From a bacterium (lineage in GTDB: Bacteria > SAR324 > NAC60-12): a stretch of 64,000 bases of DNA. Below are positions 4,933-54,345 of this stretch, one piece after another. Under the pieces are notes generated by a model, which ran no database searches, was not told where the DNA came from, and worked only from the letters and a program-made list of their open reading frames with translations. Made by a program: the position numbers and the translations under genes. Where the stretch lies: the NCBI GenBank assembly GCA_965233585.1, contig CBDDTI010000747.1:64001-128000 (forward strand), written 5' to 3'. The first letter of the stretch is position 1. Every line of letters starts with the position of its first letter.

Positions 4933-5010
4933 GGCTAAAATAAAAGGTCAACAATTGAATGTAGTTGGTTCAACACAAACGGAGTATTCTGAAGAAAATT
5001 AGCCAAAGCG

Positions 5011-6066: not shown

Positions 6067-6078
6067 GCAATGTTTGAC

Positions 6079-7749
6079 CTAAGGCACTTGTCTTTTTGCA
6101 TCAATGGAATAAATCATAATAACAGGAATCATGCCACAAATAACGATTGCTAATGCCCCAAGAGCAGATTCTTCCAACAATCCATCACCTGCGTATTGAT
6201 AAACATAAGTGGCTAACGTATTGAAATTATAGGGTTTGAGAACCATTGTTGTTGACAATTCTTTCATGGTATCCACAAAAATTAAGATTCCTGCAGCAAA
6301 AATACTGTTTCGGATTAAGGGCAAATGAACACGCCATAACGTCTGACGTGCGTTCACCCCTAAAATTTGTGAGGCTTTGTCAAGAGAAGGCTTCACACGC
6401 ATTAAACCAGATTCCACTCCCCCAATTCCCAACGCCATGAATCGGATACAGTAGGCATAAACCAAACCGCCTACACTTCCAGTGATAAGCAACCCCAAAG
6501 GCAAATCAAACAGCTTTCTTGAAAGACCATCAACGAAATTGTCCAACCCTGCCATAGGAATTAAAACCCCCACCGCTAAAGCTGTACCGGGCAGTGCATA
6601 GCCCATCATTGAAAATTGACTGGCTAATGCAAGATTCTTAGATTTTGTCACTCTCACCCCATAGACTAAAAACAAGGCAAAAGTCAATGTTGCCAATGCA
6701 GTTAAGCTAGAGACTGAAAAGGAATTCCACGCAAACTCAAAAAATTCAGATGTCCAGTTAGAATCAAAGTATTGAACCGAATAGCTGAACAAAATACCAA
6801 AAGGCAAGAGAAAACCCAACGTGATAATCGTCAAACAAAATGCGAATGCAAGCCACCCTTTCCAACCAGAAAGTTTAATAGAAATTTCTGCAGGTCTGGA
6901 ATGTGCTGAAAGCTCGTGGTAGGACTTTTTAGCACGACTTCTTTTCTCTAAATAAATTAAAATTGCAACGAACGAAAACATGACAAGAGCAATTTGTGCT
7001 GCCCCGGAGGGAGAATTCATTTCAAACCAAACTTCATAAACTCCTGTGGCTAGAGTATGCACAGCAAAAAAAGAAGCTACTCCAAAATCATTGAGTGTTT
7101 CCATAATGACGATGATGAGACCAATCACGATAGAAACACGAGCCAGAGGTAGAGATAGCCTGAAAAATGTTTGCCAACTGGAATAACCCAAGATGCGAGA
7201 GGCATGCCATAAAGATTGGGATTGGTCAAGAAATGCAGAACGAGCCATCATGTAGACGTAAGGATAGAGAGTCAAAGACATGCAAACGATCGCCCCACCA
7301 AGTGAGCGAATATCAGGAAACCAGTAATCTCTAGCACTTTCCCAGCCAAATAAAAATCGTAAAAAAATTTGAACATTGCCTGCGTATTCTAGTTGGTCTG
7401 TTGCAACGTAGGCAAAAATGTAGGCAGGCATTGCCATTGGCAGTAACAATGCCCATTGAAAGAGATTTCTACAAGGGAAACGGCAAAGTGCCACAAGCCA
7501 TGCGGCAGGAACTCCTAGCAAGATGACCCCTATTGATGTTCCAAGCATCAATAGAAAACTGCGTTTGATCAATCCAAAAAGAATTGTCTCGCTGAGATGC
7601 TTCCAGATTTCTGTCTCTGAGGAAAAAGAAAGGAGAATGACGGAAAAGATAGGCAGGAGGATCAGTGCAACAATCCCCCAACCCAATCCAATCCAGCCAT
7701 TCCAAATAGAACGAGTAGCATGATTCTTCAAAAGAATGCCACGTTCCAT
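6079..7749 (-). CDS. fbpB: Fe(III) ABC transporter permease (FbpB-like)
   Basis: Two fused permease domains; LLLPMAMPAY, LYPYVY, MKEL motifs. Confidence 0.9.
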   Translation of the reverse strand: MERGILLKNHATRSIWNGWIGLGWGIVALILLPIFSVILLSFSSETEIWKHLSETILFGLIKRSFLLMLGTSIGVILLGVPAAWLVALCRFPCRNLFQWALLLPMAMPAYIFAYVATDQLEYAGNVQIFLRFLFGWESARDYWFPDIRSLGGAIVCMSLTLYPYVYMMARSAFLDQSQSLWHASRILGYSSWQTFFRLSLPLARVSIVIGLIIVIMETLNDFGVASFFAVHTLATGVYEVWFEMNSPSGAAQIALVMFSFVAILIYLEKRSRAKKSYHELSAHSRPAEISIKLSGWKGWLAFAFCLTIITLGFLLPFGILFSYSVQYFDSNWTSEFFEFAWNSFSVSSLTALATLTFALFLVYGVRVTKSKNLALASQFSMMGYALPGTALAVGVLIPMAGLDNFVDGLSRKLFDLPLGLLITGSVGGLVYAYCIRFMALGIGGVESGLMRVKPSLDKASQILGVNARQTLWRVHLPLIRNSIFAAGILIFVDTMKELSTTMVLKPYNFNTLATYVYQYAGDGLLEESALGALAIVICGMIPVIMIYSIDAKRQVP

Positions 7750-7761
7750 GTTTGGAGGGAT

Positions 7762-8796
7762 TTAGTCAAGTTCGTTAAAATTAACTTCATTGACCAGCTC
7801 TATTGCTCTCTGACGGTTGTCAGCAATTTTTTGCAACGGAAGGTCATCAGCTTTGAATGTTCCCCATGATTTGACAAGAGAAGACCACTCAACACCGGGC
7901 TTGACAGGGTATTCATGGTTCACTTCTGCATAGATCTGCTGAGCTTCTTCTGAAATCAAAAACTCAATCAATTCAACAGCTCCCTTTTTGTTTGGTGAAT
8001 GTTTTGCGATTGCCGCACCGCTGACGTTCATGTGAGCCCCTTCAAAGTCTTGATTTGGGAAAATGATTTTAGCAGATTGTGCCCACCTGTTTTGAATGGC
8101 ATCCTTACCTGATGCTTCAAGCATTTTACCCATGTAATAAGTATTTCCAAGAGAAAGGTCGCATTGTCCTTCATAAATGGCTTTCACTTGGGCGCGGTCG
8201 TTCCCTTGAGGTTTACGAGCGAGTTGCCCCTTGAGCTGACGAAGGTAGTTTTTTGTGTAGCCTTCACCACGTTTGGCAATGAATGAAGCCCATAATGCAA
8301 GATTATAAGCATTTTTGCCATCACGGATACAAATCTTCCCTTTCCATTTGGGGTCTAGCAAATCATCGTATGTTTGAACCTCTCCATCTTTGACTCGGTC
8401 TTTGGAAGCATAAATGACACGAGAACGGGAAGTTTGAGCAACCCACAATCTGTTGGGGTGACGATATTCTGCAGGAACTAGTTTATTGATTTTAGTAGAA
8501 TTGATTCTTTGTACAAGACGAGATTCTACTAACGTGTTAAGACGCCCAATATCTACCGTTAATACCACATCAGCAGGAGAGTTGACACCTTCTTGCTTGA
8601 TTCTTTGGATATGCGTTTTTTTATCGTACAAGACATTCACCTTATACCCGCTTTTTTCCTCAAATTTTTCCAGCAAAGGCTTGATAAGAAATTCTTGTCT
8701 GTATGAATAGACTGTGACCTCATCTTCCCCTGCCATGAGAGGACTTGCAAAAACCATCACTGAAGCGATGGCACCAATCGTTTTTTTGACTTTCAT
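7762..8796 (-). CDS. fbpA: Fe(III) ABC transporter substrate-binding protein (FbpA/FutA-like)
   Basis: Signal peptide; VYSYRQ, SPADV, GNDRAQ, GNTYY tyrosine-pair, NHEYP motifs. Confidence 0.92.
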   Translation of the reverse strand: MKVKKTIGAIASVMVFASPLMAGEDEVTVYSYRQEFLIKPLLEKFEEKSGYKVNVLYDKKTHIQRIKQEGVNSPADVVLTVDIGRLNTLVESRLVQRINSTKINKLVPAEYRHPNRLWVAQTSRSRVIYASKDRVKDGEVQTYDDLLDPKWKGKICIRDGKNAYNLALWASFIAKRGEGYTKNYLRQLKGQLARKPQGNDRAQVKAIYEGQCDLSLGNTYYMGKMLEASGKDAIQNRWAQSAKIIFPNQDFEGAHMNVSGAAIAKHSPNKKGAVELIEFLISEEAQQIYAEVNHEYPVKPGVEWSSLVKSWGTFKADDLPLQKIADNRQRAIELVNEVNFNELD

Positions 8797-38278: not shown

Positions 38279-39430
38279 ATGAAACAAGGACAAAATTACT
38301 CTCCATTGAGAGAAGACAATATTTCTCCCAAAGGAACACTACACGGGCGGTCTTATACTTATGCAGATGTCATGGCATTATCCCGTGAAAGAGAGGAATC
38401 ACTCAAAGGTTTTGAAGAGCATTATGGGAGTCTGGTGGACTACATTTTGCGAATCACCTATCGCATCTGGGAAGATAAAAATGTCGGGCTGGTTTACCAA
38501 TACTATGCTGAAAACATTGACCTCTACACTCCTCTTGGCTGTATTGATTCTGCACAAACTGTGGTAGAAGACACCACCCGCACTTTGCAAGCCTTTCCAA
38601 ATCGTCAACTTTATTCACTCAATGTCATTGGTGGTGGGAATGACGCTGACGGCTATCTTTCTTCTCATCTGATACGGAGTGTGATGACCAACACAGGCGA
38701 CAGCATCTTTGGCAAGGCAACGGGTAAAAAAGTTGATGTCTTGACTATTGCAGACTGCCTTTGTCAAGACAATCAAATTGTTCGTGAGTGGCTTGTCCGT
38801 GATAATGGGGACTACGTCAGACAGCTTGGTTTTGATATTGAAAACATTGCAGAACAACTTGCACAAGCAGATTTACAGGCAAATCGTGTTGCTTGGTTTG
38901 AAGACGAAATGCAAGAGAGAGTCAGCCAGAAAAGACAAGCACCTCAAGTGCAGGGGCGTCCTAAAGGTGAGCATCATGTAGAAGAAGTGGTCAAGGCAAT
39001 GTTCTATGATGTTTGGCAGGCACAACATTTTGGAATGGTTGATGATTATTATTTTTTCAACGTGCAAGTGCATGGTCTTGGTGGCAGAAGTCTGTGTGGC
39101 ACACCAAACTTGCAAGAGTTTCTCGCTCAGTTCCATGCGACTTTTAGCAATGCAGATTTTCAAATCCACCATGTGCAAAGTATTGACTCTGATGCAGGAG
39201 CAAATGAAAAATTTGTGCATGTCCGTTGGTCTATTTGCGGAAGTCATGCCTCGTGTGGTCTTTTGGGGATTGGCACAGGGTGTCCATTATACATGATGGG
39301 CATTTCTCATTTTCGTTTAATCAGGGGAAGGATTGCTGAAGAATGGACTCTTTTTGATGAACTTTCGCTTTGGAAGCAAATCAAGCTGGCACAACTCAAA
39401 ATGAAAAAGACAGAAATCAAGAATCAATAA
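38279..39430 (+). CDS. Tandem SnoaL/NTF2-like 'ester cyclase' family protein
   Basis: Two related halves: T..G.SIFGKATGKKV...IVREWLVRD and GSH...GLLGIGTG....GRIAEEWTLFDE. Confidence 0.78.
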   Translation: MKQGQNYSPLREDNISPKGTLHGRSYTYADVMALSREREESLKGFEEHYGSLVDYILRITYRIWEDKNVGLVYQYYAENIDLYTPLGCIDSAQTVVEDTTRTLQAFPNRQLYSLNVIGGGNDADGYLSSHLIRSVMTNTGDSIFGKATGKKVDVLTIADCLCQDNQIVREWLVRDNGDYVRQLGFDIENIAEQLAQADLQANRVAWFEDEMQERVSQKRQAPQVQGRPKGEHHVEEVVKAMFYDVWQAQHFGMVDDYYFFNVQVHGLGGRSLCGTPNLQEFLAQFHATFSNADFQIHHVQSIDSDAGANEKFVHVRWSICGSHASCGLLGIGTGCPLYMMGISHFRLIRGRIAEEWTLFDELSLWKQIKLAQLKMKKTEIKNQ

Positions 39431-41048: not shown

Positions 41049-42041
41049 ATGCAGAATTTAAAGGTGAGAAGCCAAACCAATAAGGTTTTGAAAAACCAAG
41101 TCATCTGTGGAGATGCCCTAGAATTGCTTGATGAGTTAGAGGACAACTCTATTGATGCTGTCTTAACAGACCCTCCGTATTTTTTAGATAGATTGGGAAG
41201 TGATTGGAATGTCAAGAAAGTTCATAACCAAAAAAATTTAAAGGTTGTGCAATCCTTACCTGCGGGAATGAAGTTTGACCGAGAACAAGGGCAACAGCTT
41301 TACAAGTGGTATCTTCAAATTTCCAAAAAACTTTTTAGAGTTTTGAAGACAGGGGGCTTTTTCTTTTCATTTTCAAGTCCAAGACTTTATCATCGTTTGG
41401 CATGTGCAGTGGACGATGCAGGCTTTGAAATCAGGGATTGCTTCATCTGGCTTTACACTCAAAATCAAGCCAAAGCCATGAGTCTTAACCATTTTATAGA
41501 TAAGCTAGACATTGCAGAACGGGAAAAAGTACAATTAAAAAATCAATTAGAAGGCTGGAAGACTCCGCAACTGAAAAGTTGTTTTGAACCCATTGTTGTT
41601 GCTCAAAAACCTGTTGACCAAACTTACTTGAATAACATGATAAATCATCAAGTCGGCTTGCTTAATTCTCATGCTAAAACTCATCAAAAAATGTTCCCTT
41701 CCAATGTCATGTCCACTGATGAAATTTGTGACTTGATTGACAAAACATTTCTGGTTTCAAAACCAACAGCCAAAGAAAAAGGAACGTACAATCATCACAA
41801 AACTGTCAAACCTTTAGACTTGTGTAAACATCTTTTAAACTTATCGGTGTTTCATCAAGACGCAGTCGTTTTAGACCCTTTTGCAGGCAGTGGCACAACA
41901 TTAGTTGCATCAAAGGAGTTAGGATTCAACTACGTCGGTTTTGAATTAAACCAAGCCTACGTAGACATCACTCAAAAAAGACTAAAGTCTTTGGATGTTG
42001 AAGAATCCCCTCTTTTTCAATCACACGCTTCAAACACTTAA
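41049..42041 (+). CDS. Orphan N4/N6 DNA methyltransferase (beta-class motif order)
   Basis: TDPPY (motif IV) precedes H.TVKP and LDPFAGSGTT (motif I). Confidence 0.92.
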   Translation: MQNLKVRSQTNKVLKNQVICGDALELLDELEDNSIDAVLTDPPYFLDRLGSDWNVKKVHNQKNLKVVQSLPAGMKFDREQGQQLYKWYLQISKKLFRVLKTGGFFFSFSSPRLYHRLACAVDDAGFEIRDCFIWLYTQNQAKAMSLNHFIDKLDIAEREKVQLKNQLEGWKTPQLKSCFEPIVVAQKPVDQTYLNNMINHQVGLLNSHAKTHQKMFPSNVMSTDEICDLIDKTFLVSKPTAKEKGTYNHHKTVKPLDLCKHLLNLSVFHQDAVVLDPFAGSGTTLVASKELGFNYVGFELNQAYVDITQKRLKSLDVEESPLFQSHASNT

Positions 42042-42066
42042 AACTTTTTATTCCACTTACAACATT

Positions 42067-43197
42067 ATGACAACAATCACACAAGAACAATTAGACCGCT
42101 ACACTATCCGCTCCAGCCAATTTGTTTCATGTAACCAAGCCTTTGTAGATTGCCGAACACCGGGATCTGACAAAAAAGAAAATTATTCATTCATTGGTCC
42201 GGGCGTCAGCCAGTCAGCAGACCAGTTTGTGAACTTAAAAGAACGGCACGGCTTTAATATCGGAGCCGCTGCCATGCCCAAAGGTTGTGTCAATAGTCTG
42301 CACACTCATTTTACTGCAGAAGTGTTTTACATCTACAAAGGAGATTGGGAGTTTAAATGGGGAAACAAGGGAGAACATACAGCAGTCTTGCCTGAAAAGG
42401 CAGTCTTTTCCCCAATGACGTGGATGTTTCGCGGCTTCCGTAATGTTGGGGTAGATGATGGCTTCATTTTCACAGTGCTTGGAGGTGATGAAACGGGGGG
42501 GATTATTTGGCATCCTGATGTTTTGAAAGAGGCGGCAACTCATGGATTATTCCTGTCTGTTGACAATCAGCTTTTGGATACTGTGGAAAATCCTGATGCT
42601 CTCAATGGCGTCCAATTATTTGAGCCACTGACAGAAGACCAGATGCAACAAACCATGCACCAAATCTCTCCTGAAGAGATGAAACAACGTATTGTGCTTT
42701 TTGAGGATTTGGTTTGGTCAGATGAGGCGTTGCTCTGTTCTAAAATTGATGAGCATCAATGCAGTGTCGCTCCCGTGATTGGCTGGGGAATGAGTGAAGA
42801 CAAAAACCACGTGCCTCCCATTTATACACCACATACTTTTTCGGTAGAGTGGCTCAAAATTCCTGTTGGCAATTCTGTTGCCATGCACCGACTTGCAGAA
42901 CACCAAGTTTTAAAGTTGCATCAAGGGACTTTAGAGGTTGTTCTCAATACGCAAGACGAAGGTCAAGTCTCCAACACCATTCAATCCAAAGACATTCTTT
43001 CTGTGCCTCCTCATTCATGGCGGACTTTCAAAAATGTTGGAAATGAGGACGTTTGCGTGATGGTCGTTTTAGAAGGCGATGCCCCTAAACATATTGAATG
43101 GTCAACAGAAGTCATTCAACAGGCACAAGACCAAAACTATGCACTAGATCATTGTGGATACATCACTTTGCACTCTCTGGTCAAACACGCCAAATAA
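42067..43197 (+). CDS. Tandem cupin-domain protein
   Basis: SLHTHFTAEVF...FRGFRNVG and MHRL..HQV...SVPPHSWRTFKNVG cupin motifs; start set to ATG 42067 (MTTITQ). Confidence 0.82.
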   Translation: MTTITQEQLDRYTIRSSQFVSCNQAFVDCRTPGSDKKENYSFIGPGVSQSADQFVNLKERHGFNIGAAAMPKGCVNSLHTHFTAEVFYIYKGDWEFKWGNKGEHTAVLPEKAVFSPMTWMFRGFRNVGVDDGFIFTVLGGDETGGIIWHPDVLKEAATHGLFLSVDNQLLDTVENPDALNGVQLFEPLTEDQMQQTMHQISPEEMKQRIVLFEDLVWSDEALLCSKIDEHQCSVAPVIGWGMSEDKNHVPPIYTPHTFSVEWLKIPVGNSVAMHRLAEHQVLKLHQGTLEVVLNTQDEGQVSNTIQSKDILSVPPHSWRTFKNVGNEDVCVMVVLEGDAPKHIEWSTEVIQQAQDQNYALDHCGYITLHSLVKHAK

Positions 43198-43300
43198 AAC
43201 ATGAAAGCAGAAAATAAAAAAATCAGTTAAGCAGTGAAGAAATAAGTCATCTAACAATGGAACATAGAAAAAATAAATCAGTTTTATAAAATTCAAAAAA

Positions 43301-45448
43301 ATGAATCATCAAAATTTTAAAAAACATATAGAAGATATTTTAAAAGCAGATACAAGACTTTGGTATCAAGAAACCCACGAAGACGGAACTAAAACCACCA
43401 AATTAGACCAAATCTTACTCATTGATTTAGCTGAAAAACATGATGCAAGAATCTTGTCTTTGCTCTTTGCTGATGAAACTTTAAAAGAAAAGTTTTTTGT
43501 CAAAATAGGAGAAAGTTATGTGTTTAGAAATAGAGACTTTCAATTCTTTTTAGAAGAAAACAAAGTGGATAATTCTTATACAAAATATAAAAACCGTATT
43601 GGTTTAAGTGATGGCAAAAGGTTCTTAAAAGACAATAAAGAAGTCGTTTTAAATTTTCCTTTTAAGGATTGCACTTTAGAAGGTGGACAATCAACAGAAG
43701 AAGGACAAGATAGCTATTTTGAGATTGCGGGTCAAGCCCGCAATGACGGTCACAGTCATTCCGCACTTGATGCGGAATCTCCAGAGATTTATAACCAAAA
43801 ACAAGCCAAACGCAAAGAAATCTTTTTTAATGAAATTTTAGCAGCCGATGAGATAGACCGATTAAAAGATGAAAAAGCCTTAGTGAATTGGCAACGGTTT
43901 GATGTTGATGATAAAAATGTAGGGACAGACCCACGTGTCTGTCCAAATGAAAACGGACAAACAAATTTACACGATGGACAAACACATAGGTTTGTCCCTA
44001 CGGAAATAAAACGAGACCAAAACGGCACGATTAAAGAAAATCTTATCATTAAAGGCAATAACCTTTTGGCTTTGTATTCTCTCAAAAAACAATTTGCTAA
44101 GAAAATCAAACTCATTTACATTGACCCACCTTATAACACAGGAGGCGATGCCAATATTTTTACTTATAATAATAATTTTAACCATTCTACTTGGTTAACC
44201 TTTATGAAAAATAGATTAGAGGTAGCAAGGGAATTATTGAGGGAAGACGGATTTATTGCCATTGCCATAGACCATTGTGAACTTGGCTATTTGATTGTTC
44301 TAGCTGATGAGATTTTTGGAAGAGAAAATAGATTAGGGATTATTACTGTTGTGCATAATGCTGGTGGTAGACCTGATGCAACTTTTTTCTCTGTTTCAAA
44401 TGAGTATATGCTTGTTTACGCTAAGAATAAAAGCTATGCTAAACTTAAAAATTTTGATTTGCCAGATGAAAAATCTAAAAAATATAGATATAAAGATGAT
44501 AAAGGTTTTTATAAATTAGATATTTTTCACAGAGCAAGTCATAATTCTAATAGAGAAGATAGACCAAATTTATTTTATCCAATTTTTTACAGCAAAGAAA
44601 AAAATATACTTTCTACTATCAAGAAAGAAAATTTTATAGAAATTTATCCAATAGATAATCATGGAAATGAAAAATGTTGGAGATGGAGTAAAGAAAGAAC
44701 ACAAGAAAATATAGAAGAATTAGTTATAAAAAAAATAAAAAATCAGTATAGAATTTTTGCTAAAAGCAGATTAGAAAACAATAAAGGAGATAAACCAAGA
44801 ACTTTTTGGAACGATAGTAAATATTCTGGAAGCAGTGGAAGTATTTTATTAAGTAAACTATTAGGACACTCTAAACCACTTTCATTTCCCAAATCCCTTT
44901 ACACTATTTTAGACACTCTCAAACTAACAACAGAAAAGGACGACATTATTTTAGATTTTCATGCAGGTTCTGGAACAACGGGGCATGCTGTTTTGGCTTT
45001 GAATAAAGAGGATGGAGGAAACAGGAAATTTATTTTAGTAGAGCAGTTAGACCAGCATATAGACATTTGCAAAGAACGAATACAGAAAGTATTAGAAAAA
45101 GAAAATATTAATGATTCTTTTGTCTACTGTGAAATTGCCAAATGGAACGAACAAGCGAGGGAGCAAATATTAGCTTGTCAAAGTTTAGAACAACTAAAAA
45201 CTTTTTTTAGTGAAATGGTAGATAAATATTTTCTCAATTACAACCTGAAAATAAAAGAGTTTCAAGAAAAAGTTTTGCAAGAAGATGAATTTAAAAACTT
45301 ACCTTTGAACAAACAAAAAGAAATATTTATCACGATGCTAGATAATAATCAAATGTATGTGTGTAGAAGTGAGATGGAAGACGCAAAGTTTGGCATTAGT
45401 GAGGAGGACATTGAGATGACGAGGGAGTTTTATGGCAATAATAATTAA
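43301..45448 (+). CDS. mod: Type III restriction-modification methyltransferase (Mod) carrying two in-frame palindromic insertions
   Basis: NLIIKGNNL, IYIDPPYN (motif IV), variable central TRD, FPKS, LDFHAGSGTTGHA (motif I). Confidence 0.93.
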   Translation: MNHQNFKKHIEDILKADTRLWYQETHEDGTKTTKLDQILLIDLAEKHDARILSLLFADETLKEKFFVKIGESYVFRNRDFQFFLEENKVDNSYTKYKNRIGLSDGKRFLKDNKEVVLNFPFKDCTLEGGQSTEEGQDSYFEIAGQARNDGHSHSALDAESPEIYNQKQAKRKEIFFNEILAADEIDRLKDEKALVNWQRFDVDDKNVGTDPRVCPNENGQTNLHDGQTHRFVPTEIKRDQNGTIKENLIIKGNNLLALYSLKKQFAKKIKLIYIDPPYNTGGDANIFTYNNNFNHSTWLTFMKNRLEVARELLREDGFIAIAIDHCELGYLIVLADEIFGRENRLGIITVVHNAGGRPDATFFSVSNEYMLVYAKNKSYAKLKNFDLPDEKSKKYRYKDDKGFYKLDIFHRASHNSNREDRPNLFYPIFYSKEKNILSTIKKENFIEIYPIDNHGNEKCWRWSKERTQENIEELVIKKIKNQYRIFAKSRLENNKGDKPRTFWNDSKYSGSSGSILLSKLLGHSKPLSFPKSLYTILDTLKLTTEKDDIILDFHAGSGTTGHAVLALNKEDGGNRKFILVEQLDQHIDICKERIQKVLEKENINDSFVYCEIAKWNEQAREQILACQSLEQLKTFFSEMVDKYFLNYNLKIKEFQEKVLQEDEFKNLPLNKQKEIFITMLDNNQMYVCRSEMEDAKFGISEEDIEMTREFYGNNN
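43721..43781. repeat. Inverted doublet of 27-nt GTC-tagged hairpins, in-frame in mod
   Basis: GAGATTGCGGG-TCAAG-CCCGCAATGAC, 7-nt spacer, GTCATTCCGCA-CTTGA-TGCGGAATCTC; each arm has a perfect 8-bp stem and the same loop (TCAAG/CTTGA). Confidence 0.9.
43919..44001. repeat. GTAG-family REP doublet (REPIN-like), in-frame in mod
   Basis: GTAG-GGACAGAC-CCACGT-GTCTGTCC (43919-43944) and inverted GGACAAAC-ACATAG-GTTTGTCC-CTAC (43976-44001). Confidence 0.93.
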
Positions 45449-45471
45449 AAATTTTAATAAAGGATAAGAAT

Positions 45472-48027
45472 ATGAAAAATGAATTAAAAATATTTATAAG
45501 TTATTCACATCAAGATGAGGAATATGTTACTGGATTTGAAAAATATTTTGAACCGATAAAGAATAAATATAATTTGAAGTTATGGCATGATACAAAAAAT
45601 AAAGCAGGCGATAAATTTCAGCAAAAAATAGATAAGAATCTAAATGATTCAGATATTATTCTTTTATTTGTTTCTGCTAATTTTTTTTCATCTGATGCTT
45701 GTAAAAAAGAATTAAAAGAATCTTTAAAATTAAGAAATGAGAAAAATGCTATTATTGTTCCTATCATTTTATCTACTTGTGCATGGAAAGAAACAGAATT
45801 AAAAGATTTATTATGTGTTCCAAAAGATGGAAAACCTGTATCAGATTTTGAAGACAAAAATAAAGCATGGGAGGATGTTAGTAACTCAATTAAAAAACAT
45901 ATTGAAGAATTGAATCAAATAAACAATTTAAAAATAGAAGACAGTTTTAAAAAATTTTTAGAAAGCTGTGAAATTTTGGAAAAGGCTCATCAAAATAAAC
46001 AAAATGTTTCATTAGAAGATATTTTTGTTTCTCCTCAATTAGAATGTTTTGATGAACTTAGAGAATCTGAAGAGACAACTATTAATTATCAGGAACTAGA
46101 AGAAAATATTACTGATTACAAAGCTATTGTTATAGCAGGAGATGACCAATCTGGAAAAACTACTCTATGTAAAAGATTATTTTTAGCACTAAAACAAAAA
46201 AGATATTTACCAGTTTATATTTTTGATAAAGATAAAAAATTACAAGGAAAAATAAAGAATAAAATTGAAAAGGAATTTAAAGAACAATATAACTCTGAAA
46301 ATATAGAATATTCAAAAATTATGAATAGGATTATCCCTATAATAGATAATTTTTACTTGGCTAAACAAAAAGAAAATCATATAAAAAATCTATCTGAATT
46401 TAAATTTTCTATTCTTATCATAGATGATATTTACGGTTTAAATATCAAAGACAAAGATATTATCAAAAAACATAAGCATTTTAGAATAAAAGAGTTTTTG
46501 CCTACTTTAAGAAATGATTTAATTCAAAAGTGGTTGCAATTAACAGATAAAGATAGTCATAATAACGATTCTTATAAAGAATTAGATGAAAAGACAAAAT
46601 TAATAGATACAACTTTAGGAAAGATTATAGGTAATGGAATTGTTCCATCATATCCATTTTTTATATTAACTATCCTTAGCACTTACGAAACAGTTAAACC
46701 TTTAGATGAAAACATTACTTCTCAAGGGCATTGCTATCAAGCATTGATTTACATTGCTTTAAGAAAAGAAATTGATAATAAGGATATAGATATTTATCTT
46801 AATTTTATGAATGTGATTGCTTATAAGTTCTTTGAAACTCAAAAAAAAGAATTTAATGAAGAGGAATTAAATAGTTTCATAACTGAATATAAAGAAAAGT
46901 ATAATCTTCCTTTTCAAGAAGACAATTTACTTTCCAAATTAATCAGAGTAAATATTTTGAAGAAAGATTCTTTTGGCAACATTAGTTTTAAATACGATTA
47001 TTTATATTTTTATTTTGTAGCAAAATATATTGCGGAGCATATTGATGAAAACAAAAAAACTATTGATAATATCATCGCTAATCTCCACAAAAACGAAAAT
47101 GCTTATATTACTATATTTATATCTCATCATTCTAAAGATAATTATGTTCTTGATGAAGTAGTTTTAAATGCTATGTGTTTATTTGATAAATATGAATCTG
47201 CAACTTTAGAAAAAAAGGAAATCAGCTTTTTGGATAATGAAGTAAAAAATATTATTGATGCTTCACTCCCTAAACCAGATGAAAGTTCAGAACAACATAG
47301 AGCGAAACAATTAGAAATAGAAAGTCAAATTGAAGAGTCAAAAAATAAAAAACCTTTAAATGAAGATGAACAAGATATAGACCCGCTTGATTTAGAAATA
47401 AGACGAAGTATTAAAACGGTAGAAGTTATGGGTAGAATTATCCGAAACCGTGCTGGTTCTTTAGAAAATGATAGATTAAAACAAATTTTTGAAAATGGAA
47501 TGAATGTTCATCTAAGATTCTTAAAATTATTTTTAGAGTTGATGAAAGATAAAGATCAACAAGAATTTATTATAGATTTTATACGAGATAGATTAAATAA
47601 AACAGTTAAAGAATCTAAAGAGAAGATATCAGAACAAGAATTAAAAAAAATAGCTGAAAAAATATTTTGGAATTTAAATTTTCAATTCTTATATGTTGTT
47701 ATCAATAAAACAATACATTCATTAGGATCAGATAATTTAACAAATATTACTAACAATGTGTGTGATAAAATAAATACTCCTGCTTCTTTTTTAATCAAAC
47801 ACGGTATTTTAATGTGGTATTCTAAAAATCTTCAAATTGATAGTCTTTATAAAAAAACAACAGAAAAGACGTTTTCAGATACAGCAAAAAAATTAATAAA
47901 TTATTTTATTGTATCTTATTGTTATATGCACAAAATAAATTATAAAGATAGACAAAAATTAGAACAAAATTTTGGCTTTTCATCTAAAAAATTACTTCTT
48001 AATAAACCTCAAAAACCAACGCAATAA
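45472..48027 (+). CDS. TIR-domain + STAND/NACHT-like P-loop NTPase, putative anti-phage protein
   Basis: N-terminal TIR (IFISYSHQD, LWHD, AGD, SANFFSSDACKKEL, IVPIIL); Walker A VIAGDDQSGKTT; helical C-terminus; extremely AT-rich. Confidence 0.85.
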   Translation: MKNELKIFISYSHQDEEYVTGFEKYFEPIKNKYNLKLWHDTKNKAGDKFQQKIDKNLNDSDIILLFVSANFFSSDACKKELKESLKLRNEKNAIIVPIILSTCAWKETELKDLLCVPKDGKPVSDFEDKNKAWEDVSNSIKKHIEELNQINNLKIEDSFKKFLESCEILEKAHQNKQNVSLEDIFVSPQLECFDELRESEETTINYQELEENITDYKAIVIAGDDQSGKTTLCKRLFLALKQKRYLPVYIFDKDKKLQGKIKNKIEKEFKEQYNSENIEYSKIMNRIIPIIDNFYLAKQKENHIKNLSEFKFSILIIDDIYGLNIKDKDIIKKHKHFRIKEFLPTLRNDLIQKWLQLTDKDSHNNDSYKELDEKTKLIDTTLGKIIGNGIVPSYPFFILTILSTYETVKPLDENITSQGHCYQALIYIALRKEIDNKDIDIYLNFMNVIAYKFFETQKKEFNEEELNSFITEYKEKYNLPFQEDNLLSKLIRVNILKKDSFGNISFKYDYLYFYFVAKYIAEHIDENKKTIDNIIANLHKNENAYITIFISHHSKDNYVLDEVVLNAMCLFDKYESATLEKKEISFLDNEVKNIIDASLPKPDESSEQHRAKQLEIESQIEESKNKKPLNEDEQDIDPLDLEIRRSIKTVEVMGRIIRNRAGSLENDRLKQIFENGMNVHLRFLKLFLELMKDKDQQEFIIDFIRDRLNKTVKESKEKISEQELKKIAEKIFWNLNFQFLYVVINKTIHSLGSDNLTNITNNVCDKINTPASFLIKHGILMWYSKNLQIDSLYKKTTEKTFSDTAKKLINYFIVSYCYMHKINYKDRQKLEQNFGFSSKKLLLNKPQKPTQ

Positions 48028-48707
48028 TGACCCCTAATCCCACAATCAAATCCCGCAAGCCCAACCGATTAAAAGGTTATGGTTATTCTAAGGAAGGTTA
48101 TTATTTTGTTACGATTTGTGTTCAAAATAGGTTGTGTTTGTTTGGGGATATTATAGGTGGCAAGATGGTTTTGAACAGTGCAGGAGAGATGATTAAAAAA
48201 TGGTGGTTAAAATTGCCTGAGAAATTTGAAAATATTTGTTTTGAAGATGTATTTGTTGTCATGCCAAACCATATTCATGGAATTATCATTATTGAAAATA
48301 ATAAACCCATAAGGACAAATCCATGTGTCAATGTAGGGACAGACCCACGTGTCTGTCCAGAAGATAAAAATATCAATTCAACAGACCCATCCGTCAATGT
48401 AGGGACAGACCCACGTGTCTGTCCAGAAGATAAAAATATCAATTCAGCAGAGGACAAACACGCGGGTTTGTCCCTACAAGGTTTGTCATTATCAGAAATG
48501 ATGCAATGGTTTAAAACCATGACCACAAATGAATATATCAAAGGGGTAAAAAATCAAAATTGGCAGGGTTTTGACAAAAAATTATGGCAAAGATCATTTT
48601 ATGACCATGTCATTAGAGATGAAAAAGCATTATTCAATATCCAAAATTACATTATTGAGAACCCGTTAAAATGGGAAAATGACGATTATAATTTAAATAA
48701 GATATGA
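48027..48707 (+). mobile_element. REP-associated tyrosine transposase (RAYT, IS200/Y1 HUH family)
   Basis: RLKGYGYS.EGYYFVTIC, FVVMPNHIHGII (HUH), LWQRSFYDHVIRDE, YIIENP (catalytic Tyr); no tnpB; GTAG palindromes associated. Confidence 0.92.
48309..48477. repeat. Cluster of GTAG-family REPs inside the RAYT coding sequence (66-nt period duplication plus inverted copy)
   Basis: Identical 26-nt REPs at 48333-48358 and 48399-48424; inverted variant at 48452-48477; degenerate remnants at 48309-48329 and 48381-48395. Confidence 0.93.
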
Positions 48708-51478
48708 CTCCAACTAACAACCTACACCAAACCATCTCCACTCAAAAACAAGCACTTAAAAACTTTCAACCTGAAATTTTTGAGATACCGAAATACATTA
48801 CTGATAATCTCAAACATTCTTTTTTTGATTGGCAGAGAGAGGCATTTGAAAATTTATTATTTTACGAACATCCAAATTCCAAGCTAAAAAAATCCCCCAC
48901 TCACTTAATGTTTAATATGGCAACAGGAACGGGAAAAACACTGCTGATGGCAGCAAGCATTTTGTATTATTACAAGCAAGGTTATAGACATTTTATATTT
49001 TTTGTCAATCAAAATAACATCATAGACAAAACAGAAAATAATTTTATAGAAAATACCCACAACAAATATTTGTTTACAGAGAAAGTCATTATAGAAGATA
49101 AAATTATCCCGATTGAAAAGGTCAATGTTTTTAGTGATGAACCGCAGGGCATAGAAATCAAATTTACCTCTATTCAAAAGCTCTATAATGATATTCACCT
49201 ACAAAGAGAAAACCAAACAACTTTAGACGATTTACAAAGCAGAAATATTGTGATGCTTGCCGATGAAGCACATCATCTCAATGCGAATACTAAAAAAAAT
49301 GAACAAGAAAGTTTGATACACACAGAACTAAAAGGGAACACAGGAAAAGAAATAGTAGAGAGAAAAGGTTGGGAACATACGGTTATAGAGTTGATATTAA
49401 ACAAGCAAGGTTATCAAGGACAGGAACAAAATAAAAATGTATTATTAGAATTTACAGCAACCATTCCTGATAATAAACAAGTAGCCAATAAATACCAAGA
49501 CAAAATCATTTATCAATTCACCTTAAAAGAATTTCTACAAGCAGGTTATACCAAAGAGATTAATCTTATCTCTTCTACTTTGGATAAAAAAGAAAGGGTT
49601 TTACAGGCATTACTTTTTCAGTGGTATAGGCATCAAATTGCACTTAAAAACAAGATTGCTAATTTTAAACCTGTGATTTTGTTTAGAAGCAAAACCATTG
49701 AAGAATCTAAACAAGATTATGAAGAATTTTTAACTTGTATAGAAGATTTAGAAAGTAAAGATTTTGATTTTTGTCAAACCATAGCAAGTAAAATTCATCA
49801 AGCTCATAAAACTAACCCAAATGAAATCGGAAAATCCAGAACAGAGCAGGTTTTAAACTATATCCAAAAAAATAATATTCAATTTGTAGAGATTAGCGAT
49901 TGGATAAAACAAAACTTTAAAGAACAAAATACCATTATCACTAATTCTAAAACCAACACAACCAAAAAGGAAAAAACAGAAGAAGAGACAGAGAAATTGC
50001 TTAATTCTTTAGAAGATAAAAACAACCATATCCGAGCTATTTTTACGGTAGATAGATTGACAGAAGGTTGGGATGTGCTGAACCTTTTTGATATTGTGCG
50101 GCTGTATCAAGGGCAAAATACAGGGGGAAGCACGAAAAAGACCCCTGAAGCTACTACCAAAGAAAAACAGTTGATAGGTAGAGGGGTACGGTATTTTCCT
50201 TTTCAATTTCAAGATCAACAAGTCAACAAAAGAAAATTTGATAATGATTTAAACGATGAACTTAGGATTTTAGAAGAATTGTTTTATTATACCTATGATG
50301 AAGATTCAAAATATATTTCACACTTAAAAGCAGAATTGAAAAAAGATGGTTATATAAAAGACGATAGAACCATTAAAACCTTTGATTTAAAAAGTGATTT
50401 TAAACAAAGTTGTTTTTATAAAGAAACTATTATTTGGTATAATGAACAAAGAGATAACCCAGAGAGAAAAAAGAAGGATTTACAAAATATCAAACAAGAT
50501 TTTAGCTTTGAATATAAAATTCAAGACTTAGAGCTAACAGAGCAAAAAGGTATTTTAGATAAAACAGAAAGTCAAGAATCATTACAAATAGCTGAACAGA
50601 GAAATAAAAGAATTAGTAAAAAATTTAGTGAGATTGAAAAACATATTTTTTACAAAGCAATCAACATCAAAGCAAAAGCAGAGGGTTCTCTTTTTCAATT
50701 TGAGAATTTAAGAAAGGAATTAGCCATTACAAGTATAGATGATTTAAGGAAAGATGAATTTTTAGGGAATTTGGAACTCAAAATAATTACCAATACGAAT
50801 TATGAAGAGATAAGCAATAAAGATAAATTAGATTTAACATTAAAATTTTTAGATAAAGCTATCAATCAACTAAAAGAACATATTCACCCCAAAATAGGCA
50901 GCGAGTTTAAAGCAGGCAATTTTGATACATTTTTTAAACATCCAAAAAGGAAAAGTATTGAACAAAACAATTTAGATCTAACTATTCCAAAAGACAATCA
51001 ATGGTATGTTTTGGATACTTTTGTTGGAACAAACGAAGAAAAAGAACTTGTGCAATTCATCAAAAATAGCATCAGCAATTTGGAGGAAACCTATCAAGAG
51101 ATTTATCTTTTAAAAAATGAAGAAGTCTATAAAATTTATAACTTTAAAGATGGAAAAGGCTTTGCCCCAGACTTTCTTTTATTCCTGAAAACAAAGGACA
51201 AACAAAACACAGGCGTTGCCAGCACAGAAATTTATTACCAAATTTTTATAGAACCAAAAGGGGATCAATTCAAAGATTTGGAAGGTGGCTTTAGAAACTC
51301 TAAAGAAAGTTGGAAAGAGGAGTTTTTAGAACAAATCACCAAAAAATATGGTTTTGGTAAGGTAATAAAGGCAGAAAATCCAAATTATAGATTGATAGGT
51401 CTGCCTTTTTATAACAAAGCAAGTCAACAAATCTTTGAAGAGGAATACAACAAACTTTTAAAATCTGATGAGTTTTGA
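48704..51478 (+). CDS. res: Type III restriction endonuclease subunit (Res; SF2 helicase-like ATPase + PD-(D/E)xK nuclease)
   Basis: FNMATGTGKT, LADEAHH, FTAT, EGWDV, QLIGRGVR, FAPDF...FIEPKG. Confidence 0.93.
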   Translation: MTPTNNLHQTISTQKQALKNFQPEIFEIPKYITDNLKHSFFDWQREAFENLLFYEHPNSKLKKSPTHLMFNMATGTGKTLLMAASILYYYKQGYRHFIFFVNQNNIIDKTENNFIENTHNKYLFTEKVIIEDKIIPIEKVNVFSDEPQGIEIKFTSIQKLYNDIHLQRENQTTLDDLQSRNIVMLADEAHHLNANTKKNEQESLIHTELKGNTGKEIVERKGWEHTVIELILNKQGYQGQEQNKNVLLEFTATIPDNKQVANKYQDKIIYQFTLKEFLQAGYTKEINLISSTLDKKERVLQALLFQWYRHQIALKNKIANFKPVILFRSKTIEESKQDYEEFLTCIEDLESKDFDFCQTIASKIHQAHKTNPNEIGKSRTEQVLNYIQKNNIQFVEISDWIKQNFKEQNTIITNSKTNTTKKEKTEEETEKLLNSLEDKNNHIRAIFTVDRLTEGWDVLNLFDIVRLYQGQNTGGSTKKTPEATTKEKQLIGRGVRYFPFQFQDQQVNKRKFDNDLNDELRILEELFYYTYDEDSKYISHLKAELKKDGYIKDDRTIKTFDLKSDFKQSCFYKETIIWYNEQRDNPERKKKDLQNIKQDFSFEYKIQDLELTEQKGILDKTESQESLQIAEQRNKRISKKFSEIEKHIFYKAINIKAKAEGSLFQFENLRKELAITSIDDLRKDEFLGNLELKIITNTNYEEISNKDKLDLTLKFLDKAINQLKEHIHPKIGSEFKAGNFDTFFKHPKRKSIEQNNLDLTIPKDNQWYVLDTFVGTNEEKELVQFIKNSISNLEETYQEIYLLKNEEVYKIYNFKDGKGFAPDFLLFLKTKDKQNTGVASTEIYYQIFIEPKGDQFKDLEGGFRNSKESWKEEFLEQITKKYGFGKVIKAENPNYRLIGLPFYNKASQQIFEEEYNKLLKSDEF

Positions 51479-52220
51479 GATTTGGCAACTTGCTTTACTT
51501 GGTGGTGTAGGAATTTTTGCAGGCTGGCTGAATGTGCTGGCAGGTGGGGGGTCTTTAATGACTATTCCAATCATGCTGTTTATGGGGATTCCTGCTCCTG
51601 TTGCTAATGGAACAAACCGCATTGGCATTTTGTTTCAAAACCTTGCTGCAATCTATGGTTTTTTTCAAAAAGGACTTCATCAGGTGAAGTTAAGTTTAAG
51701 TTTGGCAGCATGTGCAACGTTTGGGGCAATCATCGGTGCTTCTTTGGGTGTTCAAATCACAGGCAAGTTGTTTGATTATTTGTTAGCGGCAGTCATGCTG
51801 GCGGTGATGTTACTCACAGCACTAGGGAACAAAAGTGAAAGCCGTGACCAGTTAGGTAACCCAAAAAATTTGATGCTAGGACACTTCTGCATGATTGGTG
51901 CGGGGGTTTGGGGCGGAATGATTCAAATCGGCATAGGGTTTATCTTAATGCCTATTCTCAATCGCATCATGGGCTTCAACTTGGTTCACACGAACATGCA
52001 CAAGGTCACAATCGTTGCCTGTTACACGTCAGCAGCATTGATTGTGTTTGCTATTCACATACAAATTCTCTGGCTACCGGGAATCATCTTGGCAATAGGG
52101 ACAAGCACGGGGGCTTATCTGGGTGTCCACACAACGACTTTAAAGAAAGGAGAATATTGGATTAAATGGGTGCTTTACCTCACTATCACTGCTTTTATTG
52201 TCAAACTCTTGCTTTTCTAA
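51468..52220 (+). CDS. TauE/SafE family (sulfite exporter-like) membrane protein
   Basis: AGWLNVLAGGGSL.TIP, ANGTNR, GVWGGMIQIGIG duplicated-half motifs. Confidence 0.9.
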   Translation: MSFEIWQLALLGGVGIFAGWLNVLAGGGSLMTIPIMLFMGIPAPVANGTNRIGILFQNLAAIYGFFQKGLHQVKLSLSLAACATFGAIIGASLGVQITGKLFDYLLAAVMLAVMLLTALGNKSESRDQLGNPKNLMLGHFCMIGAGVWGGMIQIGIGFILMPILNRIMGFNLVHTNMHKVTIVACYTSAALIVFAIHIQILWLPGIILAIGTSTGAYLGVHTTTLKKGEYWIKWVLYLTITAFIVKLLLF

Positions 52221-52273: not shown

Positions 52274-53338
52274 ATGGCACGTATAGAGTTAAAAAATTTG
52301 ACAAAACGTTGGGGGAGTTTTGAAGCGGTGAAAGAGACTAGCATTGACATTCAAGACAAAGAATTTTTAGTCTTGCTTGGGCCCAGCGGTTGTGGAAAGA
52401 CAACAACAATGCGAATGGTGGCAGGGTTAGAGTCACCCACGTCAGGAGAAATCCTAATAGATGGGAAGTTGGTCAATGACTTAGAACCCAAAGACCGCAA
52501 TGTGGCAATGGTCTTTCAATCCTATGCACTTTATGCACATCTCACCGTTTATGAAAACATTTGCTTCCCCTTAAAAGTCAGACGCATTCCCAAAAAACAA
52601 TGGAAAGATGCCGCTTTGAAAGCTGCAAAGATGGTAGAGTTAGACCATCTTTTAGAAAGATACCCCAAAGAGCTTTCAGGGGGGCAACGTCAGCGAGTTG
52701 CTTTGGCAAGAGCCATTGTTAGGCAAAAGCCAAGCTGTTTTTTGATGGACGAGCCTCTTTCTAACTTAGATGCCAAGCTTCGTGTCACCATGAGAACAGA
52801 AATCAAACATTTACAAGAACAACTTCAAGTGACGACAATTTACGTCACACATGACCAAATAGAAGCTATGACTTTGGCAGACCGTGTGGCACTCATTAAA
52901 CATGGCGTCATACAACAGCTTGGAACGCCCCAAGAAATTTACAACAATCCCCAAACTCTCTTTGTTGCAGGCTTTATTGGCAATCCTGCTATGAATTTGA
53001 TTCATGGTGAGCTAGTTGATGGCAAGTTTCGCTCCGATGGTATCCAAGCAAAAATGACTGATGGTCTTTCCAAAAGCAATGTCATTTTGGGAGTTCGTGC
53101 AGAAGATTTGCAACTGCAAGCCCCTGGAGAAGGTGACATACAAGGACAAGTCTATGCCTTTGAACAATTAGGCGAGTGCAATATGGTTGTCATGGTGCTA
53201 GGAGAAGGCAGGTTGTCTGCCAAAGTAGATAAAAACCAGTTCTTTAAAACGGGCGATGCAGTCTCTTTTTCTGCACCTCAAAATGCTTACTATCTCTTTG
53301 ATGGTGAAACTGAACAAAGAATCTATTTAAAAGATTGA
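52274..53338 (+). CDS. Carbohydrate (CUT1) ABC transporter ATPase, MalK/UgpC-like
   Basis: GPSGCGKT, AMVFQSYALY, LSGGQRQR, MDEPLSNLDAKLR, YVTHDQ.EAM. Confidence 0.95.
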   Translation: MARIELKNLTKRWGSFEAVKETSIDIQDKEFLVLLGPSGCGKTTTMRMVAGLESPTSGEILIDGKLVNDLEPKDRNVAMVFQSYALYAHLTVYENICFPLKVRRIPKKQWKDAALKAAKMVELDHLLERYPKELSGGQRQRVALARAIVRQKPSCFLMDEPLSNLDAKLRVTMRTEIKHLQEQLQVTTIYVTHDQIEAMTLADRVALIKHGVIQQLGTPQEIYNNPQTLFVAGFIGNPAMNLIHGELVDGKFRSDGIQAKMTDGLSKSNVILGVRAEDLQLQAPGEGDIQGQVYAFEQLGECNMVVMVLGEGRLSAKVDKNQFFKTGDAVSFSAPQNAYYLFDGETEQRIYLKD

Positions 53339-54345
53339 TGTCAAATTTTCAAGCCAACAAACAACTTGTCTTAGATTTATATCGCGAGTTAGAAAAAGCA
53401 CAGGGAGATGAGCTAAAATCTGTGTTCTGTCGTTACGCAAGCCAAGATTACCATTGGCGGGGAATGCACCCTTTTCACGAGCAGCAAGGCATTGATGCTG
53501 TTTGCGAGGTCTTTTGGAAGCCATTGAAAATGTCATTCACTTCTTTACAAAGGCGTCCTGATGTCTTGATGGCAGGGTTAAACGATGTGGACAATGGGCA
53601 AACCGAGTGGGTTTGTAGCATGGGGCATTTGATGGGATTGTTTGACCAAGCATGGCTAGGTATTCCACCAACAAAAAAGATGGCATTCTTCCGTTATGCC
53701 GAATTTCATTGCATTCAGAAACAAAAAATCACTGAAACAGCTTTGTTCTTTGACGTCATTAGCATCATGCAACAAGCAGGGCATTATCCCTTACCTCCGC
53801 AAACAGGGGCATTTTTCATTCACCCAGGACCCAAAACGCATGACGGATTGCTGTTTGACAAACAAGCCTCTGATGAGTCCCAAAAAACTTTAGACCTAGT
53901 TAAAACAATGTGTTCTCATTTGGCTGACCTAAATGAAAGTAACGAACGTTGCCCCCCTGAATTATTAGCACAAACTTGGCATGATGACATGGTCTGGTAT
54001 GGTCCTGCTGGAATTGGTGCAACCTATACCATTCCTAGATACCAAAAACAACACCAATACCCGTTCCGTGACCATCTTAAAAACAAAGTGTTTAATGGTC
54101 ATGTCTGCCGTTTTGCAGAAGGGAAGTATGCGGGTTTTTTTGGCTGGGCTAATTTAACGAATACACCCACAGGGGGCTTTTTAGGGTTACCTGCTAATGA
54201 AACACGTGCCGATATGAGAGTCGTAGATATTTACAGACGAGAAGGAAACAAACTTGCAGAAAATTGGGTGTTCATGGACTTGCTGCATTACCTCAATATG
54301 CAAGGCTTGGATCTTTTGAAACGTCTCAAAGACCTCACTGGCTAA
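53335..54345 (+). CDS. Tandem SnoaL/NTF2-like 'ester cyclase' family protein
   Basis: FWKPL, WLGIPPT, WHDDMVWYGPAGIG, MRVVDIYR...KLAENWVFMDL. Confidence 0.8.
   Translation: MMSNFQANKQLVLDLYRELEKAQGDELKSVFCRYASQDYHWRGMHPFHEQQGIDAVCEVFWKPLKMSFTSLQRRPDVLMAGLNDVDNGQTEWVCSMGHLMGLFDQAWLGIPPTKKMAFFRYAEFHCIQKQKITETALFFDVISIMQQAGHYPLPPQTGAFFIHPGPKTHDGLLFDKQASDESQKTLDLVKTMCSHLADLNESNERCPPELLAQTWHDDMVWYGPAGIGATYTIPRYQKQHQYPFRDHLKNKVFNGHVCRFAEGKYAGFFGWANLTNTPTGGFLGLPANETRADMRVVDIYRREGNKLAENWVFMDLLHYLNMQGLDLLKRLKDLTG

Follow-up and report, generated by a model that had tools for sequence, protein, structure and literature searches.

A RAYT gene and in-frame REP sequences within a split Type III restriction-modification operon of a SAR324 bacterium

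We analysed a 64,000-nt stretch of DNA (the window) from a bacterium of the SAR324 lineage (GenBank assembly GCA_965233585.1, contig CBDDTI010000747.1, positions 64,001–128,000), in which the two genes of a Type III restriction-modification (R-M) system, mod and res, are separated by genes for a TIR-STAND NTPase and for a RAYT (TnpA_REP), a predicted Y1 HUH nuclease. Copies of a repetitive extragenic palindromic (REP) sequence lie in frame within both mod and the RAYT gene. We consider it likely, with a probability of roughly 0.78, that these 8 kb represent a defence island of low GC, gained by horizontal transfer, whose intact mod/res pair is split by passenger genes, and that its in-frame REPs are passive. 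The facts observed are real and stand well above chance. Both striking features, the REPs internal to the RAYT gene and the REP doublet in mod, are already described phenomena, and the evidence points away from a defence-specific cassette mechanism.

An intact mod/res pair with two genes between

Open reading frames (ORFs) and domain searches agree with a first-pass annotation, made from the sequence alone, in giving the gene order mod, TIR-STAND, RAYT, res; all four ORFs lie on the plus strand of the window. The overlaps reported there were read directly in the sequence, TAATG at 48025–48029 between TIR-STAND and RAYT and ATGA at 48704–48707 between RAYT and res. The gap from mod to res is 3.2 kb and holds the two other genes. 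Features of Type III R-M membership are present, namely a Mod with an N-terminal Type III domain and an N6/N4 methyltransferase core, and a Res with ResIII. Both genes are intact and were recognised by Pfam and PADLOC. The 715-aa methyltransferase encoded by mod (43301–45448, +) carries TypeIII_RM_meth at residues 48–102 and N6_N4_Mtase at residues 269–591, aligns with the PADLOC model MTase_III (PDLC03635) over profile positions 5–701 of 708 (E 1.7e-158), and matches by profile the solved Type III Mods 7dsu, 6k0w and 4zcf. Its DPPY and FxGxG-like segments, which we take to be the catalytic and S-adenosylmethionine-binding motifs, are invariant or nearly so. The 924-aa restriction subunit encoded by res (48704–51478, +) carries ResIII at residues 38–255 and aligns with PADLOC REase_III over profile positions 19–856 of 873 (E 5e-101).

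The GC content of the genes is 0.31 for mod, 0.24 for TIR-STAND, 0.34 for RAYT and 0.30 for res, against 0.42–0.43 for the flanking genes. Taken from 41049 to 51478, the R-M/TIR-STAND block forms a low-GC island (0.24–0.37) within a metabolic cluster of GC 0.42–0.43. TIR-STAND itself (GC 0.237; GC at third codon positions, GC3, 0.137, rounded 0.14) is more AT-rich than mod and res (~0.30). No integrase was found among the window ORFs scanned, in line with the first-pass annotation.

The TIR-STAND NTPase (45472–48027, +; 851 aa) was identified by Pfam TIR_2 and nSTAND_NTPase4. Against the NCBIfam model DS8_antiphage (NF053861) it scored 464 bits, under the cutoff of 790, and only profile positions 281–993 matched, with the TIR domain standing in place of the first 280 model positions. 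PADLOC reported PDC-S60 (242 bits) and also a ThsB-like TIR; the protein is not a full-length member of DS-8 or PDC-S60. Full-length relatives in three plasmids stand alone, with no adjoining Type III mod or res, one of them with a short upstream ORF. Some plasmid relatives carry a metallophosphoesterase at the N-terminus rather than TIR. We found no report in the literature of PDC-S60, DS-8 or TIR inside a Type III R-M system. TIR-STAND probably represents a defence module of its own, a single gene that has come to lie between mod and res, and the most likely role of RAYT is that of a passenger, co-transcribed within the island; we read the Type III pair as split by two separately acquired genes.

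REP sequences in frame within mod and the RAYT gene

A 30-mer that the first-pass annotation had placed once in mod and twice in the RAYT gene indeed occurs as three exact copies, at 43916 in mod and at 48330 and 48396 in RAYT, all on the plus strand. None is expected by chance: 100 dinucleotide shuffles, with 3 mismatches allowed, gave no match in any. This count of direct copies stood, but the inverted partners had been overlooked: the degenerate REP pattern GTAGGGACARAC-N6-GTYTGTCC finds 5 units in the 64 kb (0 expected). The identification of the repeat as a REP held as well; all five units are GTAG-tagged and each has an 8-bp stem. Neither a further REP copy nor a further GTAGGGAC is present in the 64-kb window; TIR-STAND and res are without a copy, and the reported absence of intergenic copies was borne out. 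By our estimate, a density of more than about one copy per 19 kb is disfavoured by the REP-free state of the other 56 kb.

In mod, a left unit (43919–43944, +; peptide VGTDPRVCP) and a right unit (43976–44001, −; peptide GQTHRFVPT) make up an in-frame, REPIN-like doublet (43916–44001, +). In the RAYT gene, an in-frame array (48294–48477, +) holds units at 48333–48358 (+), 48399–48424 (+) and 48452–48477 (−), the extra left unit having its source in a 66-nt tandem duplication (48294–48359 and 48360–48425). Each gene thus holds an inverted REP pair, that is, a REPIN-like doublet, with 27-nt arms that are 85–89% complementary and 27–29 nt apart. As single-stranded DNA (ssDNA), one REP unit folds with 8 bp in its stem and 6 nt in its loop (z about −3.6); the mod doublet forms a hairpin of −17.6 kcal/mol (z −5.19) and the RAYT doublet a hairpin of −22.9 kcal/mol (z −6.74); for either doublet, 0 of 200 shuffles fold as well. 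REPIN is reportedly the name used by Bertels and Rainey in 2011 for a REP doublet that forms a hairpin. The window doublets share with REPINs the two inverted REPs, 27–29 nt apart, in one long imperfect hairpin, but differ in that both are coding, not extragenic, and in that the 64 kb hold just 2 clusters, which both lie in the island. A mobile unit bounded by the mod and RAYT REPINs was considered and rejected, as it would cut through two genes. Ahead of each full left unit of the RAYT array lies a degenerate half-REP remnant, seen by eye at 48306–48326 and 48381–48395, which suggests that the 66-nt period arose from older, decayed REP units.

A REP unit is open in 5 of its 6 reading frames, and VGxDxxVCP-like and GxHxGxPL-like peptides are GTAG hairpins read in two of these open frames. 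The left units of mod and RAYT are identical at 30 of 30 nt, loop included; the loop varies in the other genomes inspected. Between the right units there are differences at three positions of the loop, and alignment of the spacers is poor. Because the left units agree throughout, loop included, we infer for the two sets of copies a common, not very recent, origin within the island.

The REP-like peptide is present in none of the 119 closest Mod homologues (48–64% identical), which argues that the mod doublet is an insertion. Mod residues of about 204–218 and 223–232 have an occupancy of at most 0.16 in the homologue alignment, and similarity to the solved structures 7dsu, 6k0w and 4zcf starts just past the REP insert. 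Judged by this alignment and by the match to solved Mods, the doublet is an insertion in a predicted inter-domain linker. It lies N-terminal to the methyltransferase core (from about residue 240) and far upstream of a variable stretch at 380–500. Despite the insert, the Mod ORF is whole and its family match full-length.

The RAYT gene (48027–48707, +) encodes 226 aa. Its identity as a RAYT, proposed at first pass, was upheld by the HUH histidines H82 and H84, by Y208, and by fold and profile matches to 4er8. Pfam Y1_Tnp (PF01797) scored 25.7 bits against a cutoff of 23, in the C-terminal half only, and NCBIfam REP_Tyr_transpos (NF047646) scored 65 bits against a cutoff of 80, the insert splitting the match into two stretches. 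Conservation was read from an alignment of 40 sequences, made up of 38 of the 120 listed homologues, picked for length diversity, and the genes of two loci from other genomes (L005 and L009, described below). In it, H82 and H84 of the HUH motif (N81-H82-I83-H84, on strand E82–89 of the AlphaFold model) are invariant and align to the HMH of 4er8. Y208, within model helix 199–218, is also invariant and aligns to Y115 of 4er8, presumably the catalytic residue. The model has a core block with pLDDT 80–98, and residues 104–120 and 125–150 fall below 50; the REP array encodes residues of about 90–150. Foldseek ranked 4er8_A first (E 6.3e-5, TM 0.61 on target), with IS200/IS605 TnpA structures next, and 4er8 was the sole profile match among all PDB sequences (E 2.8e-5). 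With this E. coli TnpA_REP in complex with its REP hairpin, its best structural match, RAYT shares the HUH motif and the C-terminal Tyr position. It differs in that the structural alignment gives 17% identity, that E. coli REPs flank the gene, and that the distance from HUH to WQ is about 27 residues in E. coli versus about 98 here. At the GTAG-binding positions of the E. coli protein, given in the legend to Fig. S11 of PMC6006769 as W94, Q95, W99, E100, H101 and R104, RAYT has W187, Q188, Y192, D193, H194 and R197, four of the six identical and two conservative. The protein ends 18 residues past Y208, with no C-terminal extension after the core. Its cognate GTAG REP hairpins are found within its own gene and 4.4 kb away.

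Internal REPs turned out to be a trait of the family. Among the best 120 of 7342 RAYT homologues, strict patterns found the left-arm motif in 105, the right-arm motif in 88 and both in 79. Six of the 120 have neither; by eye, four of these carry related variants, one a partial trace and one (P0080) nothing. The spacer from HUH to the QWFKT helix measures 14–161 aa and holds peptides, frequently in several copies, that are VGxDxxVCP-like and GxHxGxPL-like. Quentin et al. (2018, PMC6006769) describe REP sequences inserted within tnpA_REP genes of subclass 2.4 as a unique feature, regard the RAYT group 4 of Bertels et al. (2017) as the same subclass, and refer in the legend to Fig. S10 to "REP insertions in coding sequences". 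In-frame REPs inside a RAYT are thus already known, and the first-pass premise that they are anomalous fell away: they are the rule in the subfamily. REP-encoded peptides as such found no match in the literature, although intragenic REPs are described in PMC6006769.

By published features, the window RAYT is of the subclass 2.4-like kind. In common with subclass 2.4 (RAYT group 4), it is a Y1 HUH protein with a variable, REP-made in-frame insertion between beta3 (HUH) and alphaC, it has no C-terminal extension, and it has relatives across many phyla. Unlike that subclass, it has no flanking REPs, because the genes on either side overlap it; its setting is a Type III R-M operon, whereas the word 'restriction' is absent from the main text of PMC6006769; and the foot of its stem has two G-C pairs and then A-T, not three G-C pairs.

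Other genomes and the surroundings of the island

A pattern scan of 185,579 species genomes (596 Gb) gave at least 121 loci, from at least 62 assemblies and at least 17 phylum-level labels by hand count of accession prefixes; the 121 listed include none from the window's own genome. Our own arithmetic, assuming uniform base composition, puts the chance expectation at about 4 matches in 596 Gb. The match lies inside a RAYT-like ORF at two loci (L005 and L009), and one further locus (L117) has a RAYT alongside. Unbiased conservation of the REP at the DNA level was not taken from L005 and L009, and this use of them was rejected because both were found by the pattern itself. Another 28 stop-to-stop ORFs of at least 150 aa span a match, 15 of them with a Pfam match. 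In these 15 the REP falls in the gene body six times (UvrC, UvrA, MetRS, GATase, a TPR protein and a radical-SAM protein), once within the final 20 codons (a TnpB), and eight times in a 5' extension before the matched domain, possibly upstream of the true start. The remaining matches are in shorter ORFs or outside ORFs; overall, confirmed genes seldom hold the pattern. When all ORFs of at least 50 aa in the 121 loci listed were compared with a Mod profile, Res and TIR-STAND, a Mod-like gene turned up in the flanks of one locus (L009), and relatives of Res or TIR-STAND in none. In the sample listed, the REP is a widespread dispersed element that is not tied to defence genes. The first-pass suggestion that cassettes are written into defence genes finds no support: coding copies lie in six other kinds of gene, and a single locus among those listed has a Mod-like neighbour.

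In-frame REPs in unrelated genes have been described by Di Nocera et al. (2013, PMC3733652), who suggest that linkers or loops tolerate them. These REPs are likewise in-frame singles or dimers of 20–30 codons in otherwise functional-looking genes, with uvrA, uvrB, recB and tRNA synthetases as examples; our pattern falls in UvrA, UvrC and MetRS. What differs is that the host gene here is a Type III mod and that a donor-like copy lies 4.4 kb off, in a RAYT of the same operon.

Several individual loci are of interest. One Patescibacteria metagenome-assembled genome (MAG) carries the REP in frame in UvrC, UvrA and MetRS (L047/L048, 973–998 and 2735–2760; L079, 3001–3026); both Uvr genes hold REP doublets, and the UvrA peptide GQTGRFVPTE is nearly that of the window Mod. 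At L037, L038, L042 and L103 (e.g. L037, 3001–3030), matches on both strands are offset by 4 nt, with GTAG at one end and CTAC at the other; these hairpins correspond to the 'double foot' REP of subclass 2.4 described in PMC6006769. In a Latescibacterota MAG, five head-to-tail REPs at 43-nt spacing adjoin an alpha/beta hydrolase gene (L063, 3001–3198). In a Phormidium MAG, the REP occupies the last 20 codons of a TnpB ORF (OrfB_IS605 / Cas12f-like TNB), at the 3' end of an IS605-type element (L052, 3001–3026).

The contexts available for RAYTs are few: tblastn of plasmids gave 4 records and of phages none, and insert-bearing loci with context number four. At L009, in a Marinamargulisbacteria MAG, the end of the RAYT shares 11 nt with the gene of a PF01555 methylase that has 29% identity to the Mod of the window, and a CARF-HTH gene and two DUF1016 nuclease genes lie in the vicinity. 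At L123 (plasmid NZ_OY725736.1 of Monoglobus pectinilyticus, 3779–8462), a RAYT remnant lies between two tandem mods, followed by res. The mods have 34% identity to that of the window; their ends are nearly the same and their middles differ; the remnant is without the N-terminal core and overlaps the second mod by 8 nt; and a local GTAG REP lies 15 nt past the stop of each mod copy. The arrangement looks like a REP-bounded duplication of a specificity variant. At L005, in an Armatimonadota MAG, the RAYT stands beside repair, EF-Tu and ribosomal genes. Two other plasmid RAYTs, one of them from Leptolinea, have no internal REP and no R-M neighbour; the Leptolinea gene (L122; plasmid AP024711.1, 5577–6925) has three GTAG REPs on each side, the classical REPtron layout. 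Twenty 'longer' RAYT homologues include one HsdM-RAYT fusion and one with a DUF1016 piece; their other Pfam partners are TrpF (4 clusters), QueG, MshO-like pilins (4 clusters), PLD, LTD/PKD and AAA.

Around the four genes, a Type II-like N6/N4 methylase gene (41049–42041) lies upstream of mod and is overlapped by a gene for a 400-aa protein with a cupin match at its C-terminus only (41995–43197). The two (41049–43197) could form another R-M pair, one whose nuclease has gone unrecognised. Metabolic genes follow beyond them. SnoaL-domain genes flank the island on both sides (38279–39430 and 53335–54345), and the start of a TauE exporter gene (51468–52220) overlaps the res stop.

Rival readings and meaning of the locus

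If the island is read as a split Type III pair with passengers, TIR-STAND and RAYT would be two lodgers between an intact mod and res. By analogy with its family, RAYT would bind the REP hairpin on ssDNA, read the GTAG foot, and cut and rejoin the strand through its HUH/Tyr site. One REP doublet would have been copied, with strand and orientation unchanged, from the RAYT array into mod, which puts it 4.4 kb upstream; this direction is suggested by the sequences themselves. It may have survived there because the unit is open in five of six frames and landed in a variable linker before the methyltransferase core. Since the mod doublet lies in a linker and the RAYT insert is disordered in the model, the in-frame REPs would be passive, tolerated insertions in disordered or linker segments and not a device aimed at defence genes. 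Two observations weigh against this reading. Three of the four insert-bearing RAYT loci (the window, L009 and L123) abut or overlap a Type III-like mod, more than a pure passenger predicts; and the REP-encoded residues V103, G104, D106, V109 and P111 are at least 90% conserved across the 40 aligned sequences, which are ~50% identical overall, more than befits a neutral loop.

The conservation of these residues bears on a reading compatible with the passenger interpretation, in which the array inside RAYT is functional, as a protected master copy or an autoregulation site, and not a neutral insert. It is near-universal in the subfamily, with constant place and reading frames; the single dispersed copy of the window agrees with the left unit of the array at 30 of 30 positions; and no REPs flank the window RAYT. 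Insert-free relatives nevertheless exist, P0080 and the Leptolinea gene with its flanking REPs, and the wide range of copy number is consistent with slippage or with repeated insertion; we hold a functional array to be a tentative possibility, on the doubtful side. The placement of RAYTs raises a different question. The RAYT–R-M linkage seen by the first-pass annotation recurs in three of four loci, yet L005 is unlinked and the sample very small, and the recurrent placement of this kind of RAYT against Type III-like mods is suggestive and no more. We think it unlikely that subclass 2.4-like RAYTs are recurrently wired into Type III-like R-M operons by overlapping stop/start codons, for which the window (RAYT-res), L009 (RAYT-mod) and L123 (mod-RAYT remnant-mod-res) would be the three cases. 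Were it true, the RAYT enzyme or the hairpin array would be an operon-level component, either an ssDNA nuclease that is directed by hairpins and works alongside the restriction complex, or a REP-based device governing the ratio of Res to Mod, and the operon would offer a concrete, testable setting for the long-sought host function of a 'domesticated' RAYT. It appears quite unlikely to us that RAYT plays a working part in the R-M or defence operon, for example as an ssDNA nuclease guided by hairpins, with invading or replicating DNA as its target, a role close to the second option of the first-pass annotation. The idea has a forerunner in the Conclusion of Bertels et al. (2017, PMC5581495), where a CRISPR-like bait and a defence role for RAYTs and REPINs are considered, and it would account for the stop/start overlaps with TIR-STAND and res, the three loci beside diverged Type III-like mods, and the HsdM fusion and DUF1016 part among the 20 'longer' homologues. 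The sample is tiny, however, and the window itself supplies one of its three cases; the RAYT of L005 has EF-Tu, ribosomal and repair genes as neighbours, housekeeping proteins make up most of the fusion partners, the L123 copy is without its N-terminal core, and no PADLOC model matches RAYT. Nor did we find a link between RAYTs and R-M in the literature: in PMC5581495 'restriction' occurs in the reference list only, and the supplements of bioRxiv preprints may hold more.

The first option of the first-pass annotation, in which defence proteins are diversified through short in-frame cassettes that the RAYT/REP pair inserts or rearranges, is, in our estimation, very improbable. One REP doublet does lie in frame in mod, and at L123 a REP lies 15 nt past the stops of two tandem mods with differing middles and a RAYT remnant between them. 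A precedent exists in tnpA_REP–procA of marine picocyanobacteria (bioRxiv 10.1101/2020.03.09.984088), where a subclass 2.1 gene repeatedly adjoins one kind of cargo and is proposed to drive its diversification; that system has intergenic hairpins and many gene copies, whereas one gene and few R-M loci are seen here. Moreover, the mod insert precedes the core and lies far upstream of the variable 380–500 stretch, so we see no reason for it to change specificity; the in-gene copies elsewhere are in UvrA, UvrC, MetRS, GATase, TPR and radical-SAM genes; one among the 121 loci listed has a Mod-like neighbour; and TIR-STAND and res have no copy. A further proposal, compatible with the passenger interpretation, is that REP hairpins between mod and res are kept to tune expression through attenuation or mRNA stabilisation, holding Res low relative to Mod, with RAYT as a mere carrier. 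Hairpins do lie between mod and res in two unrelated systems, within the RAYT ORF of the window and at L123, where REPs at 8185 (+) and 8348 (−) stand directly before res, and the window hairpins are stable. A REP role in transcription termination or mRNA stabilisation is reportedly the subject of a 1982 paper by Higgins. REPs are likewise held to act in transcription termination and mRNA stabilisation in PMC3733652. Such tuning leaves the copy inside mod itself unexplained, and these RAYTs carry their array wherever they are sited, as at L005; we rate it as improbable.

The locus thus brings together in one operon two published phenomena, a RAYT that encodes its own REPs and a REP doublet tolerated in frame in another gene. 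It also carries a warning for annotation, in that peptides such as VGxDxRVCP or GxHxGxPL are REP DNA and not protein motifs. If upheld by a wider survey, the link between RAYTs and Type III R-M would provide a defined operon in which RAYT function can be tested.

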